Source of the DNA: Escherichia coli
GTDB taxonomy: Bacteria; Pseudomonadota; Gammaproteobacteria; Enterobacterales; Enterobacteriaceae
Strand: one strand, 5' to 3'
NCBI RefSeq assembly: GCF_013122565.1
Contig: NZ_CP053258.1
DNA: 64,000 nt
Part shown: in pieces, positions 2,673 to 10,034 of the stretch
How the letters are laid out: every line of letters starts with the position of its first letter
Position numbering within the stretch: the stretch's first letter is position 1
Made by a program: the position numbers and the translations under genes
Notes under the pieces: generated by a model
Databases searched by the model: none
What the model saw: only the letters and a program-made list of their open reading frames with translations
What the model was told of the DNA's origin: nothing

Positions 2673-2734
2673 ATCGGCGGAACCAGGCTTTTGCTTGAAT
2701 GTTCCGTCAAGGGATCACGGGTAGGAGCCACCTT

Positions 2735-3727
2735 ATGAGTCAGAATACGCTGAAAGTTCATGATTTAAATGAAGATGCGGAATTTGATGAGAACGGAGTT
2801 GAGGTTTTTGACGAAAAGGCCTTAGTAGAAGAGGAACCCAGTGATAACGATTTGGCCGAAGAGGAACTGTTATCGCAGGGAGCCACACAGCGTGTGTTGG
2901 ACGCGACTCAGCTTTACCTTGGTGAGATTGGTTATTCACCACTGTTAACGGCCGAAGAAGAAGTTTATTTTGCGCGTCGCGCACTGCGTGGAGATGTTGC
3001 CTCTCGCCGCCGGATGATCGAGAGTAACTTGCGTCTGGTGGTAAAAATTGCCCGCCGTTATGGCAATCGTGGTCTGGCGTTGCTGGACCTTATCGAAGAG
3101 GGCAACCTGGGGCTGATCCGCGCGGTAGAGAAGTTTGACCCGGAACGTGGTTTCCGCTTCTCAACATACGCAACCTGGTGGATTCGCCAGACGATCGAAC
3201 GGGCGATTATGAACCAAACCCGTACTATTCGTTTGCCGATTCACATCGTAAAGGAGCTGAACGTTTACCTGCGAACCGCACGCGAGTTGTCCCATAAACT
3301 GGACCACGAACCAAGTGCGGAAGAGATCGCAGAGCAACTGGATAAGCCAGTTGATGACGTCAGTCGTATGCTTCGTCTTAACGAGCGCATTACCTCGGTA
3401 GACACCCCGCTGGGTGGTGATTCCGAAAAAGCGTTGCTGGACATCCTGGCCGATGAAAAAGAGAACGGTCCGGAAGATACCACGCAAGATGACGATATGA
3501 AGCAGAGCATCGTCAAATGGCTGTTCGAGCTGAACGCCAAACAGCGTGAAGTACTGGCACGTCGATTCGGTTTGCTGGGGTACGAAGCGGCAACACTGGA
3601 AGATGTAGGTCGTGAAATTGGCCTCACCCGTGAACGTGTTCGCCAGATTCAGGTTGAAGGCCTGCGCCGTTTGCGCGAAATCCTGCAAACGCAGGGGCTG
3701 AATATCGAAGCGCTGTTCCGCGAATAA
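2735..3727 (+). CDS. rpoS: RNA polymerase sigma factor RpoS (sigma-S/sigma-38); 330 aa from the internal ATG (MSQNTLKV), codon 33 is GAG (Glu)
   Basis: ORF translation recognised as RpoS; ORF-track start at 2699 is an upstream in-frame ATG. Confidence 0.95.
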
Positions 3728-3745
3728 GTAAGCATCTGTCAGAAA

Positions 3746-3780
3746 GGCCAGTCTCAAGCGAGGCTGGCCTTTTTTCTTTT
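3746..3780 (+). terminator. Intrinsic terminator downstream of rpoS (GGCCAGTCTC..GAGGCTGGCC hairpin plus T-tract)
   Basis: Inverted repeat followed by TTTTTTCTTTT read in sequence. Confidence 0.7.
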
Positions 3781-3847
3781 GTTTGGGAAGCATGTGTTTT
3801 TGTCGCCTGGATAAGACACGTCAGCGTCCTACCCGGCAATCAGCATT

Positions 3848-4255
3848 CTATGTGTTCATCATCTTGCGCACCAACTGCATAAACAGCTCCTGCTCTTCTG
3901 CACTCAAACGCCCCAAAAATTCCTCATCCACGCTGTCACCAATGGGGATCGCCGCAGCAAGTACCTTTTCTCCTTCGGCAGTCAGCCAGACAAAGCGTCG
4001 CCGCTTGTCAGCGGCGTCATGTTCACGTCTGACTAAGCCACGATTTTCCATTCTTGCCAACATTTCTGCCAGCGTTGCTTTGGTGCTGACTGCTGCTTCT
4101 ATCAGTGCCACCTGTTCGATACCAGGCTTATCAGCAATGGCGCGCATCACCGCGTACTGTGGTTTGGTCAGGTCAGGTAACTCGTGCTGCCAGCGAGCCG
4201 TGTGCTGCTGAAAAAGCTGTCGTAACTGATGGAACGCTTTATTTCGTAACGCCAT
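3848..4255 (-). CDS. MarR/SlyA-family transcriptional regulator, divergent from the decarboxylase operon
   Basis: 135-aa ORF with winged-helix MarR-like core; position matches the slyA-like gene of the non-K-12 mutS-rpoS region. Confidence 0.8.
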   Translation of the reverse strand: MALRNKAFHQLRQLFQQHTARWQHELPDLTKPQYAVMRAIADKPGIEQVALIEAAVSTKATLAEMLARMENRGLVRREHDAADKRRRFVWLTAEGEKVLAAAIPIGDSVDEEFLGRLSAEEQELFMQLVRKMMNT

Positions 4256-4370
4256 GTAAACTCCGGGCTAATTCTCTGCCGCTATCATAGCGGTTTTTCA
4301 GTGACGAAGAAGATGTTGTTACTTTTCAGCGCTTGCCGCGATGAAAACAGAGGCGTATTTTAATAATAAC

Positions 4371-4384
4371 GTTCGTATACGAAC
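4371..4384. promoter_or_regulatory. Perfect 14-bp palindrome GTTCGTATACGAAC in the divergent promoter region, 18 bp upstream of the UbiX-like start; candidate MarR-type operator
   Basis: Palindrome read directly from sequence; position between divergent regulator and operon. Confidence 0.45.
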
Positions 4385-4401
4385 AATTTAGAGAGTAAGC
4401 A

Positions 4402-4995
4402 ATGAAACTGATCGTCGGGATGACAGGGGCCACCGGAGCGCCTCTTGGTGTGGCATTACTGCAAGCACTGCGGGAGATGCCGAATGTCGAGACTCATCTG
4501 GTGATGTCGAAGTGGGCGAAAACCACCATTGAACTGGAAACGCCTTACAGCGCCCGCGATGTTGCTGCCCTCGCTGACTTCAGCCATAACCCGGCGGATC
4601 AGGCGGCGACCATCTCCTCAGGTTCCTTTCGTACCGACGGCATGATCGTTATTCCGTGCAGTATGAAAACGCTCGCAGGTATCCGTGCCGGTTACGCCGA
4701 TGGCCTGGTAGGGCGCGCGGCGGACGTCGTGCTCAAAGAAGGCCGCAAACTGGTGCTGGTGCCGCGTGAAATGCCGCTTAGCACCATCCATCTCGAAAAT
4801 ATGCTCGCACTTTCACGCATGGGCGTGGCGATGGTGCCGCCGATGCCTGCCTTTTATAACCATCCCGAAACGGTAGATGACATTGTCCACCATGTGGTAG
4901 CCCGCGTGTTGGATCAATTTGGCCTCGAACATCCCCACGCCAGGCGCTGGCAAGGATTGCCGCAGGCCCTGAATTTTTCTCAGGAGAATGAATAA
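4402..4995 (+). CDS. UbiX/Pad1-family flavin prenyltransferase paralog (B subunit of a phenolic-acid decarboxylase system)
   Basis: 197-aa ORF with UbiX-like flavoprotein N-terminus (MKLIVGMTGATGA); stop overlaps start of the UbiD-like gene. Confidence 0.85.
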   Translation: MKLIVGMTGATGAPLGVALLQALREMPNVETHLVMSKWAKTTIELETPYSARDVAALADFSHNPADQAATISSGSFRTDGMIVIPCSMKTLAGIRAGYADGLVGRAADVVLKEGRKLVLVPREMPLSTIHLENMLALSRMGVAMVPPMPAFYNHPETVDDIVHHVVARVLDQFGLEHPHARRWQGLPQALNFSQENE

Positions 4996-6422
4996 TGGCA
5001 TTTGATGATTTACGCAGCTTTTTACTGGCGCTTGATGACCACGGCCAGTTACTGAAAATCAGCGAAGAGGTGAACGCGGAACCGGATCTGGCAGCAGCAG
5101 CTAACGCCACCGGGCGTATCGGCGATGGCGCGCCCGCGCTGTGGTTTGATAATATTCGCGGTTTTACCGATGCGCGCGTGGCGATGAATACCATCGGTTC
5201 CTGGCAGAACCACGCGATTTCCCTCGGCCTGCCGCCAAACACGCCGGTCAAAAAGCAGATTGATGAGTTTATCCGCCGCTGGGATAACTTCCCGATCGCC
5301 CCGGAGCGCCGCGCCAATCCAGCCTGGGCGCAGAACACCGTCGATGGCGACGAGATTAACCTGTTCGATATTCTGCCGCTGTTTCGTTTAAACGACGGTG
5401 ATGGCGGTTTCTATCTCGATAAAGCGTGCGTGGTTTCCCGCGACCCGCTCGATCCGGATAACTTCGGCAAGCAGAACGTCGGTATCTACCGCATGGAAGT
5501 GAAGGGCAAACGTAAGCTCGGCCTGCAACCGGTGCCGATGCACGATATCGCCCTGCATCTGCATAAAGCGGAAGAGCGCGGTGAAGATCTGCCGATTGCG
5601 ATCACCCTCGGTAACGATCCGATCATCACCCTGATGGGCGCCACCCCGCTGAAATACGATCAGTCTGAGTACGAAATGGCGGGCGCACTGCGCGAAAGCC
5701 CGTACCCGATCGCTACCGCGCCATTGACCGGTTTTGACGTGCCGTGGGGTTCTGAAGTGATCCTCGAAGGCGTTATCGAAAGCCGCAAACGTGAAATCGA
5801 AGGGCCATTCGGTGAGTTTACCGGCCACTACTCCGGCGGGCGTAACATGACCGTGGTGCGCATCGATAAAGTCTCTTACCGCACCAGGCCGATTTTCGAA
5901 TCGCTGTACCTCGGCATGCCGTGGACCGAAATCGACTACCTGATGGGGCCTGCCACCTGCGTGCCGCTTTACCAGCAACTGAAAGCCGAGTTCCCGGAAG
6001 TGCAGGCGGTAAACGCCATGTACACCCACGGCCTGCTGGCGATTATCTCCACCAAAAAACGCTACGGCGGCTTTGCCCGCGCGGTGGGGCTGCGAGCAAT
6101 GACAACGCCGCATGGTTTGGGCTACGTGAAGATGGTGATTATGGTCGATGAAGACGTTGATCCGTTCAACCTGCCACAGGTGATGTGGGCGCTCTCCTCG
6201 AAAGTGAACCCGGCGGGCGACCTGGTGCAGTTGCCGAATATGTCCGTGCTGGAACTCGACCCAGGTTCAAGCCCGGCGGGGATCACCGACAAGCTGATTA
6301 TCGACGCCACCACGCCTGTTGCCCCGGACAACCGTGGTCACTACAGCCAGCCGGTGGTGGATTTACCGGAAACCAAAGCCTGGGCTGAAAAACTGACCGC
6401 TATGCTGGCCGCACGTAAATAA
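4995..6422 (+). CDS. UbiD-family prFMN-dependent decarboxylase (C subunit)
   Basis: 475-aa ORF with UbiD-family similarity; translationally coupled to the upstream UbiX-like gene. Confidence 0.85.
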   Translation: MAFDDLRSFLLALDDHGQLLKISEEVNAEPDLAAAANATGRIGDGAPALWFDNIRGFTDARVAMNTIGSWQNHAISLGLPPNTPVKKQIDEFIRRWDNFPIAPERRANPAWAQNTVDGDEINLFDILPLFRLNDGDGGFYLDKACVVSRDPLDPDNFGKQNVGIYRMEVKGKRKLGLQPVPMHDIALHLHKAEERGEDLPIAITLGNDPIITLMGATPLKYDQSEYEMAGALRESPYPIATAPLTGFDVPWGSEVILEGVIESRKREIEGPFGEFTGHYSGGRNMTVVRIDKVSYRTRPIFESLYLGMPWTEIDYLMGPATCVPLYQQLKAEFPEVQAVNAMYTHGLLAIISTKKRYGGFARAVGLRAMTTPHGLGYVKMVIMVDEDVDPFNLPQVMWALSSKVNPAGDLVQLPNMSVLELDPGSSPAGITDKLIIDATTPVAPDNRGHYSQPVVDLPETKAWAEKLTAMLAARK

Positions 6423-6432
6423 GGAGAACAAG

Positions 6433-6669
6433 ATGATTTGTCCACGTTGTGCCGATGAACAGATTGAAGTGATGGCGAAATCGCCGGTGAAAGATGTCTG
6501 GACGGTCTACCAGTGCCAGCATTGCCTTTATACCTGGCGCGATACCGAACCGCTACGCCGCACCAGTCGCGAACATTACCCGGAAGCGTTTCGCATGACG
6601 CAGAAAGATATTGATGATGCGCCAATGGTGCCGAGCATCCCGCCGCTGCTGGCGGCAGATAAGCGTTAA
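6433..6669 (+). CDS. Small zinc-ribbon protein, D subunit of the decarboxylase cluster (CPRC...CQHC)
   Basis: 78-aa ORF, four Cys in two CxxC pairs, 10 nt downstream of the UbiD-like gene. Confidence 0.7.
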   Translation: MICPRCADEQIEVMAKSPVKDVWTVYQCQHCLYTWRDTEPLRRTSREHYPEAFRMTQKDIDDAPMVPSIPPLLAADKR

Positions 6670-6710: not shown

Positions 6711-7367
6711 TTATTTAATTTTATAAAACGATAACCGTCCACTCTCCGGCGAGCCGGTATCAATATAAACTTGATTGGCAAATGTCTGGATATTGGTAAA
6801 CATCATATGCCCGAAGATAAAACAGTCTGCACCGTTTATTTCTTTTAACTCTCCCTTGAATGATTTCTGCACGCGATCAACAGGCCAGAGTAATTCTCTT
6901 TCTGCTATTTCTTTACCAAACTGATATTCATCACCCGGATAATCCGCATGTGCGATGACATATTTTATTCTGTCGTTAGTGATTTCAATAATATGTGGAA
7001 GGTGATGAAATTTCAGCAACAGATCTATTGCCTCTTGTTGCTCTGAATCATTTAAATCGAAAAACCAGTCACCACCGCTGGCAAGCCACATGTTGCCATC
7101 GCCGGTCGCGAACGCATCCAGCGCCATTGCTTCGTGGTTGCCTTTAACGGAGATAAACCAGGGCTGGTTTAGCAGGCGCAGGACGCTAAGACTCTCCGGC
7201 CCACGATCAATATTATCGCCGACAGAAATAAGTAAGTCGGTTTCGGGGAAAAAAGAGAGTTGATGTAAACGGGATTGTAATAACTGATATTCACCATGAA
7301 TATCACCAACGACCCATATATGGCGATAGTGACGGGCATTGATTTTTTGATAGCGTGTAGATGGCAT
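6711..7367 (-). CDS. pphB: Serine/threonine protein phosphatase 2 (calcineurin-like metallophosphatase)
   Basis: 218-aa ORF with GDIHG and GNHE metallophosphatase motifs; adjacent to mutS. Confidence 0.9.
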   Translation of the reverse strand: MPSTRYQKINARHYRHIWVVGDIHGEYQLLQSRLHQLSFFPETDLLISVGDNIDRGPESLSVLRLLNQPWFISVKGNHEAMALDAFATGDGNMWLASGGDWFFDLNDSEQQEAIDLLLKFHHLPHIIEITNDRIKYVIAHADYPGDEYQFGKEIAERELLWPVDRVQKSFKGELKEINGADCFIFGHMMFTNIQTFANQVYIDTGSPESGRLSFYKIK

Positions 7368-7472: not shown

Positions 7473-10034
7473 TTACACCAGACTCTTCAAGTGATAAATC
7501 CACTCCAGCGCCTGACGCGGGGTCAGTGAATCCGGGTCGAGATTTTCCAGCGCTTCCACCGCGGGCGAGGTTTCTTCCGGCACTGAAAGCAGCGACATCT
7601 GCGTACCATCAACCTGCGTAGCGGCGGCATTCGGCGAAATGCTCTCCAGCTCGCGCAGTTTCTGCCGCGCACGCTTGATCACCTCTTTCGGCACACCCGC
7701 CAGCGCAGCAACCGCCAGGCCGTAGCTTTTGCTCGCCGCGCCGTCCTGCACGCTGTGCATAAAGGCAATGGTATCGCCGTGCTCCAGTGCATCGAGATGC
7801 ACGTTGGCGACGCCTTCCATTTTCTCCGGTAACTGGGTCAGCTCGAAATAGTGGGTAGCAAACAACGTCAACGCTTTAATCTTATTCGCCAGATTTTCCG
7901 CGCACGCCCACGCCAGCGACAGACCATCGTAAGTGGACGTTCCACGCCCAATCTCATCCATCAGCACCAGACTGTACTCGGTGGCGTTATGTAAAATATT
8001 GGCGGTTTCGGTCATTTCCACCATAAAGGTTGAACGGCCGGAAGCCAGATCGTCCGCTGCCCCTACGCGGGTAAAGATGCGATCGATAGGTCCAATCTCG
8101 ACTTTTTGTGCCGGTACATAGCTGCCGATGTAGGCCATCAACGCAATCAGTGCGGTCTGGCGCATATAGGTACTTTTACCGCCCATATTCGGACCGGTAA
8201 TGATCAACATGCGACGCTGCGGCGACAGGTTCAGCGGGTTGGCGATAAACGGCTCATTCAGCACCTGTTCAACCACCGGATGGCGGCCTTCGGTGATGCG
8301 AATACCCGGTTTATCAATAAAGGTCGGGCAGGTGTAGTTCAGGGTATAGGCCCGCTCTGCCAGGTTAACCAGCACATCAAGTTCTGCCAGCGCGCTTGCG
8401 CTCTGTTGCAACGCTTCCAGATGCGGCAACAGCAGGTCGAACAGCTCTTCATAAAGCTGTTTTTCCAGTGCCAGTGCTTTGCCTTTTGAGGTGAGAACTT
8501 TATCTTCGTACTCTTTTAGCTCTGGAATAATGTAGCGTTCGGCGTTTTTCAGCGTCTGGCGGCGCATGTAGTTAATCGGAGCCAGGTGGCTTTGCCCACG
8601 GCTGATCTGAATGTAATAGCCATGCACCGCGTTAAAGCCAACTTTCAGCGTGTCCAGGCCGGTACGTTCACGCTCGCGGATTTCCAGACGCTCCAGATAA
8701 TCGGTCGCGCCGTCAGCCAGCGCGCGCCACTCATCCAGCTCTTCGTTATAGCCCGATGCGATAACACCACCGTCGCGTACCAGCACTGGCGGTGTGTCGA
8801 TGATTGCTCGCTCCAGCAGATCGCGCAGCTCGGCAAACTCGCCCATCTTCTCACGCAGCGCCTGTACCGGTGCACTATCGACGCCTTCCAGTTGCGCACG
8901 AAGTTCCGGCAGTTGCTGGAAAGCGTGACGCATACGGGCCAGATCGCGTGGGCGAGCGGTACGCAACGCCAGACGCGCCAGAATACGTTCCAGGTCGCCG
9001 ACCTGACGCAGTACCGGCTGCAGCTCGGCGGTGAAATCCTGCAATGCGCCAATAGTTTGCTGGCGCTCAAGCAACACGCGGGTATCGCGCACTGGCATAT
9101 GCAGCCAGCGCTTCAGCATACGGCTACCCATCGGCGTTACAGTGCAGTCGAGTACGGAAGCCAGCGTGTTTTCCGCACCACCCGCCAGATTCTGGGTGAT
9201 TTCCAGATTTCGACGCGTCGCGGCATCCATAATGATGCTGTCCTGCTCACGTTCCATGGTGATAGAACGAATATGCGGCAGGGTTGTGCGTTGGGTATCT
9301 TTCGCATACTGCAACAGACAACCGGCAGCACAAAGTCCGCGCGGCGCGTTCTCGACGCCGAAACCAATCAGATCACGAGTACCAAATTGCAGGTTCAACT
9401 GCTGGCGCGCGGTGTCGATTTCAAACTCCCACAGCGGGCGACGGCGCAGACCGCGACGACCTTCAATTAACGACATTTCAGCAAAATCTTCTGCATACAG
9501 CAGTTCCGCCGGATTAGTGCGTTGCAGTTCTGCCGCCATCGTTTCCCGGTCAGCCGGTTCGCTAAGGCGAAAACGACCGGAGCTGATATCCAGCGTCGCG
9601 TAGCCGAAACCTTTACTGTCCTGCCAGATAGCCGCCAACAGGTTGTCCTGACGCTCCTGCAACAGCGCTTCATCACTGATGGTGCCTGGCGTAACGATAC
9701 GCACAACTTTGCGCTCAACCGGACCTTTGCTGGTCGCCGGATCGCCAATTTGTTCGCAGATGGCAACGGACTCGCCCTGATTCACCAGTTTGGCGAGGTA
9801 GTTTTCCACCGCATGGTAGGGGATCCCCGCCATCGGGATCGGCTCGCCCGCTGAAGCGCCGCGTTTGGTCAGTGAAATATCCAGCAGTTGCGACGCGCGT
9901 TTTGCGTCGTCATAAAACAGTTCATAAAAATCACCCATCCGGTAAAACAGCAGGATCTCGGGATGCTGGGCTTTCAGCTTGAGATACTGCTGCATCATGG
10001 GCGTATGGGCGTCGAAATTTTCTATTGCACTCAT
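7473..10034 (-). CDS. mutS: DNA mismatch repair protein MutS
   Basis: 853-aa ORF with Walker [10 protein letters not shown] and MutS signature; recognised sequence. Confidence 0.97.

Follow-up and report, generated by a model that had tools for sequence, protein, structure and literature searches.

The perfect 14-bp palindrome GTTCGTATACGAAC at positions 4371–4384 of the window, by which we mean the whole 64,000-nucleotide stretch of Escherichia coli DNA that was analysed, is very probably the published operator of the MarR-family repressor HosA, and as such an element that is already known rather than new. A bare palindrome of 14 bp is statistically ordinary in 64 kb of DNA; the meaning of this one comes from its location, its conservation across genera and the published binding of HosA to the same sequence.

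Location of the palindrome

The palindrome lies within the 146-bp intergenic region (4256–4401) that separates hosA, on the minus strand, from vdcB, on the plus strand (Table 1). Inspection of the letters bears out the preliminary description of this DNA in its positional claims, namely that the palindrome is perfect over 14 bp at these coordinates, that it sits in a divergent region shared with a MarR-like gene and that it is 18 bp upstream of a UbiX-like start codon; the last figure agrees when counted from the end of the palindrome to the start, with 17 nt between position 4384 and the vdcB ATG at 4402. The symmetry goes no further, C4370 and A4385 being non-complementary.

Three perfect 14-bp palindromes were observed in the window against 4–5.5 expected by chance (3.9 by a naive estimate and 5.5 ± 2.3 per window in first-order Markov simulations), a count that favours reading this one as a chance feature without function. 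Only about 0.012 such palindromes are expected inside 4256–4401 alone, however, and the intergenic location is by itself suggestive. Searching the window for GTTCGTATACGAAC at up to three mismatches returned two extra matches, which is the chance level (30 of 100 shuffles reach 3), and TTCGNNNNCGAA gave one extra match, also at chance level; we found no evidence of further HosA sites within the 64 kb.

The flanking genes place the hosA–vdcBCD locus in the polymorphic rpoS–mutS region of Escherichia. Gene order is rpoS (2699–3727), hosA, vdcB, vdcC, vdcD, a phosphatase gene and mutS (7473–10034), as in the RefSeq annotation of the equivalent region; to the left of hosA stands surE-pcm-nlpD-rpoS, and the gene to the right of vdcD, before mutS, is pphB-like. 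VdcB, VdcC and VdcD all score above the NCBIfam curated cut-offs for the subunits of non-oxidative hydroxyarylic acid decarboxylase. The hosA–vdcB junction is present in 2403 of 5426 complete E. coli genomes, chromosomal every time. Only six of these 2403 match the hosA region of the window at ≥99%, and the lineage of the window is therefore poorly represented among complete E. coli genomes.

Two strain differences were seen along this region. The gene after vdcD is a pphB-like serine/threonine phosphatase gene in the window (6711–7367, followed by mutS) and ygbN in E2348/69 (L081, 6361–7573), a difference that is part of the known rpoS–mutS polymorphism. In addition, the annotation of E2348/69 (L081, 2388–3381) gives a frameshifted rpoS, a gene whose frame is intact in the window (2699–3727).

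Table 1. Features of the hosA–vdcBCD locus, in window coordinates
Feature	Position	Strand	Basis
hosA, MarR-family winged-helix repressor, 135 aa	3848–4255	-	Pfam MarR; PDB 8aga
Probable hosA -10, TATGAT within CTATNATAGC	4284–4289	-	Columns 4282–4291 conserved
Predicted -35 hexamer TTGCCG, vdcBCD promoter	4333–4338	+	TTG invariant across genera
Predicted -10 hexamer TATTTT, vdcBCD promoter	4356–4361	+	T1, A2 and T6 conserved
Operator assigned to HosA, GTTCGTATACGAAC	4371–4384	.	Identity to published HosA oligonucleotides; cross-genus conservation
Operator half-site GTTCG	4371–4375		
Operator half-site CGAAC (centre between the half-sites, TATA)	4380–4384		
Shine–Dalgarno-like GAGAG of vdcB, outside the palindrome	4391–4395	+	Aligns with GAGG conserved elsewhere
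vdcB, UbiX-family flavin prenyltransferase, decarboxylase subunit B	4402–4995	+	NCBIfam VdcB, 312 bits (cut-off 290)
vdcC, UbiD-family decarboxylase subunit C	4995–6422	+	NCBIfam VdcC, 788 bits (cut-off 650)
vdcD, small subunit D	6433–6669	+	NCBIfam VdcD, 121 bits (cut-off 30)

The regulator and its published binding site

The neighbouring regulator, which had been described as SlyA/MarR-like, is identified by homology as HosA, a ‘homologue of SlyA’. Its protein matches PDB entry 8aga (‘Transcriptional regulator HosA’) over its full length (residues 1–135) with an E value of 5.9e-85, matches six further PDB entries named HosA and is 97–98% identical to protein clusters of E. coli (HosA) and Shigella; one Klebsiella orthologue carries the name HosA from its source. 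Across 81 orthologues, conservation reaches at least 90% in the recognition helix (S57–L66) and the wing (D83–R87), a near-invariance that matches that of the operator half-sites described below.

Binding of HosA to this sequence has been published. In one study (PMC6261655, Sci Adv 2018), HosA of E. coli UMN026 shifted synthetic DNA with a 14-bp palindromic site in EMSA and bound it in BLI; 4-hydroxybenzoate, which bound HosA with a Kd of 4.74 µM by ITC, released the protein. The supplementary oligonucleotide DNA_HosA-F0 of that study reads CAGAGGCGTATTTTAATAATAAC-site-AATTAAGAG, and its left flank is identical to positions 4349–4370 of the window. In another (PMC6694116, Nat Commun 2019), the native part of the supplementary probe dsDNA(HosA)-F consists of only 16 bp, CGTTCGTATACGAACA, an upper-case motif that is the same as window positions 4370–4385. 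HosA shifted this probe and was released by p-hydroxybenzoate but not by close analogues. The HosA binding and 4-hydroxybenzoate release that we attribute to the window site are those reported for HosA of UMN026 on an identical sequence.

One discrepancy concerns the machine-read form of the PMC6261655 supplement, in which the site in bold appears as GTTTCGTATACGAAC, with 15 letters and in the same form on both strands. The forward and reverse oligonucleotides are identical over this stretch, which is impossible for complementary oligonucleotides. This is probably a transcription error, as the text of the paper says 14 bp and two other oligonucleotides give GTTCGTATACGAAC. A full-text literature search for the 14-mer returned no paper, and we found its letters only in supplementary oligonucleotide tables.

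Two preprints on HosA crystal structures credit Roy & Ranjan 2016 (PMID 26818787; Biochemistry 55:1120) with repression of the decarboxylase operon of E. coli UMN026, its derepression by 4-hydroxybenzoate and autorepression of hosA; papers that cite the same study also attribute to it a palindromic site that lies beyond the transcription start and serves as a steric block. The proposals made earlier from the letters, of an operator for a MarR-like dimer that might respond to a phenolic acid and control both the operon and its own gene, find support in these sources on essentially every point. The palindrome is identical to the HosA probes of both binding studies (PMC6694116 and PMC6261655), the ligand named in these papers is 4-hydroxybenzoic acid, and operon control and autoregulation are among the results that the two preprints credit to Roy & Ranjan 2016, the route of autoregulation being unobvious from the Escherichia sequence.

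Conservation of the operator

We scanned one genome per species and collected 80 loci with HosA relatives at 60–99% identity from about 20 enterobacterial genera, among them Escherichia, Citrobacter, Salmonella, Klebsiella, Enterobacter, Kluyvera, Kosakonia, Leclercia, Lelliottia, Phytobacter, Pseudocitrobacter, Pluralibacter, Atlantibacter, Cedecea, Superficieibacter and Rahnella. The operator motif was found upstream of hosA at 0–2 mismatches in all 80 loci, 26 of which carry it exactly. Across 75 aligned intergenic sequences, positions 2–5 (TTCG) and 10–14 (CGAAC) are invariant and position 1 is G in 71, with variation at positions 6–9 limited to transitions that keep the alternation of pyrimidine and purine (YRYR). 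Identity to the window base averages 95% over the columns of the palindrome against 49% over the remaining spacer. The site thus has the character of a MarR-family operator, being an inverted repeat in a promoter region whose half-sites are conserved alongside the recognition helix. Half-sites that are invariant across some 20 genera, next to flanks with identity down to 49%, are not what a functionless palindrome would leave, and the published binding of HosA to the sequence (PMC6261655, PMC6694116) points the same way; we regard a chance origin as already effectively refuted by this conservation and the published EMSA.

The motif is kept in loci with a different operon structure. In Cedecea the operon begins with vdcC and has no vdcB, and the operator is still present; the site therefore tracks the junction between hosA and the operon, and not vdcB. 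In the Cedecea sulfonylureivorans locus (L066, 857–2905), hosA is divergent directly from vdcC and the operator is about 63 bp upstream of vdcC. Searches for vdcB by tblastn in four loci (L052, L059, L071 and L079) found none, and all four retain the motif upstream of hosA.

Operators of GntR-family regulators have GT-N-AC cores, which the central GTATAC of the palindrome resembles. The palindrome could on this ground be the site of another regulator, for example one of GntR/FadR type, with the MarR-family neighbour being coincidental. We consider this extremely unlikely, because it is the outer TTCG and CGAAC that are conserved and the GTATAC core that varies (GTGTAC, GTACAC, GTATGC), because the site accompanies hosA throughout the 80 loci, Cedecea without vdcB included, and because HosA binding is published for a probe with only 16 bp of native sequence (PMC6694116). 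The assignment to HosA is the one that we retain.

Within E. coli, the canonical operator with common flanks is present in at least 1803 complete genomes. The variant GTTCGTGTACGAAC (A7 to G), represented by strain MS1718 (L083), occurs in 71 complete genomes, and GTTTGTATACGAAC (C4 to T), which breaks an invariant half-site and is represented by strain 13TMH22 (L084), in only eight. A separate observation concerns a 6-kb contig (L001, DXKH01000072.1) from a metagenome-assembled genome named ‘Citrobacter sp.’, on which both the HosA (99% identical) and the 147-bp spacer are of Escherichia type. The same assembly carries a Citrobacter-type locus (L017), and the contig is probably mis-binned.

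Predicted promoter geometry and the leader RNA

The operator has a fixed relation to a predicted promoter of vdcBCD. In 74 of 75 loci we found the arrangement TTGnnn, 17 nt, TAnnnT, followed 7–11 nt further on (mostly 9–10) by the operator; in the window the distance from the -10 hexamer to the palindrome is 9 nt. A generic sigma-70 scan of 3700–4500 reported no promoter, and this one was missed because TTGCCG-17-TATTTT agrees with the consensus at 8 of 12 positions, one under the threshold of 9. The predicted promoter would place the transcription start at about 4368–4369, so that the operator would span roughly +3 to +17, in agreement with the position past the transcription start given in the literature. 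An inverted repeat flanking the -35 hexamer (TTTTCAGCGC/GCGATGAAAA) was dropped from consideration; it is unconserved even within Escherichia.

Transcription from about 4368 would carry the palindrome into the 5' leader of vdcB, where a stem of 5 bp with a loop of 4 nt is possible and where the variable operator positions 6–9 would fall in or beside the loop. The palindrome might then work chiefly at the RNA level, as a hairpin that influences the stability or translation of the mRNA, and not as a protein-binding DNA site. Several findings make this a highly unlikely reading. The hairpin would be weak (-3.4 to -4.9 kcal/mol), and the leader shows no gain in folding over shuffled sequences (z = +0.5; 137 of 200 shuffles at least as stable). 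The stem excludes the Shine–Dalgarno sequence and so leaves the ribosome-binding site free. Nor does the stem show compensatory changes: its sequence is invariant, and the G1-to-A substitution in Rahnella breaks a pair that is not compensated. A near-copy of the motif upstream of the -35 in many genera would not be transcribed from the vdcBCD promoter at all, and an Rfam scan of 3700–4700 found no family, returning two irrelevant sub-threshold matches only. Finally, the direct binding of HosA to DNA has been published (PMC6261655, PMC6694116).

We also rejected the palindrome as an intrinsic terminator or structured leader RNA, with a folding energy of -3.4 kcal/mol, no T-run on the plus strand, no covariation and no Rfam match. 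A ‘terminator-like’ scan match to it on the minus strand was likewise set aside, since no minus-strand gene leads into it.

The probable hosA promoter and a second HosA-like box in other genera

A 15-bp palindrome, CCGCTATCATAGCGG, is present at 4279–4293, and our scan marked it as resembling a terminator when read on the plus strand; the columns of its core CTATNATAGC (4282–4291) are 70–98% conserved across genera, the central N excepted. The TATGAT within this core is probably the -10 element of hosA, a promoter role that we infer from sequence and conservation. About 82 bp separate it from the HosA operator, and simple occlusion of the hosA promoter from the single Escherichia site is therefore unlikely. 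The reported autorepression of hosA may involve a different promoter or work in a different way.

Many genera have a second HosA-like box, GATCGTRTRCGAAC, among them Klebsiella, Enterobacter, Kluyvera, Leclercia, Lelliottia, Pluralibacter, Pseudocitrobacter and Pseudenterobacter, with a weaker form in Phytobacter. We noted the box upstream of hosA in loci L006, L010, L019, L020, L022-L024, L027, L030, L034, L037, L039-L051, L054-L058, L063-L065 and L067. Its distance upstream of the main operator is a fixed 56–57 bp, and its end lies 3–4 nt before the -35 hexamer. Conservation covers the right half and the centre of the box and is weaker in the left half; the chance probability of a match at up to two mismatches is about 5e-4 per spacer. 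At up to four mismatches we found no counterpart in Escherichia (the window included), Citrobacter, Salmonella, Kosakonia, Atlantibacter or Rahnella, and the equivalent position in the window, at about 4312–4328, has no such site.

The single operator of Escherichia may belong to a broader design with two operators, of which it would be one half, a suggestion that we offer tentatively and regard as somewhat more doubtful than probable. If the second box were a real HosA site, the tightness of repression, cooperativity or autoregulation of hosA would differ between lineages, and the hosA promoter of the window would be subject to different, or to less, regulation than its counterpart in the genera that have the box.

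Proposed mechanism and significance

The operator, its position and the published ligand suggest a simple mode of action. A HosA dimer would settle with its two winged-helix domains on the half-sites GTTCG and CGAAC, and when bound at about +3 to +17 it would stop RNA polymerase during initiation or promoter escape, so that the decarboxylase operon stays off. Binding of 4-hydroxybenzoate would free the DNA and allow the operon to be transcribed. As this compound is both a substrate of VdcBCD and the ligand that releases HosA, the operon would be induced by its own substrate.

By analogy with what is established for the UbiX and UbiD families, VdcB would supply prenyl-FMN to VdcC. The HosA switch would represent textbook substrate induction, in which the operon for a prenyl-FMN-dependent 4-hydroxybenzoate decarboxylase is silent until 4-hydroxybenzoate appears, for example from parabens or plant phenolics. 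The pair of HosA and its operator already serves as a biosensor part for 4-hydroxybenzoate (PMC6261655, PMC6694116). The presence of the palindrome in the window only bears out that a known regulatory element of the rpoS–mutS region is correctly annotated, and it advances no open question; the cross-genus consensus RTTCG-YRYR-CGAAC, together with the fixed geometry of promoter and operator, could aid the annotation of orthologous loci.

Comparison with known systems

The nearest known system is the hosA/HAD (vdcBCD/ecdBCD) locus of E. coli UMN026, which has the same 14-bp site and immediate flanks (window 4349–4385), the same gene arrangement in the rpoS–mutS region and a regulator that is 97–98% identical. 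It differs from the window in no essential respect; there are a few substitutions downstream, in the ribosome-binding region (AATTTAGAGAGTAAGCA in the window and AATTAAGAGAATAAACA in UMN026).

MarR with marO and the SlyA operators of E. coli and Salmonella offer a broader parallel. These regulators share the Pfam MarR domain with HosA and resemble it as dimeric winged-helix proteins on an inverted repeat, but HosA falls far under the equivalog cut-offs of both families (29.8 bits against 120 for SlyA; 28.6 against 240 for MarR) and differs from them in operator sequence, ligand and regulon.

PcaV of Streptomyces coelicolor follows the same principle as HosA, as a MarR dimer that responds to a hydroxybenzoate-type ligand, is released by it from a palindromic operator and controls the catabolism of aromatic acids. 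Among solved structures it is the closest homologue of the window protein outside HosA itself (PDB 4fht/4g9y, E 1.8e-16), although it is a distant protein whose ligand is protocatechuate and whose target is the pca operon.
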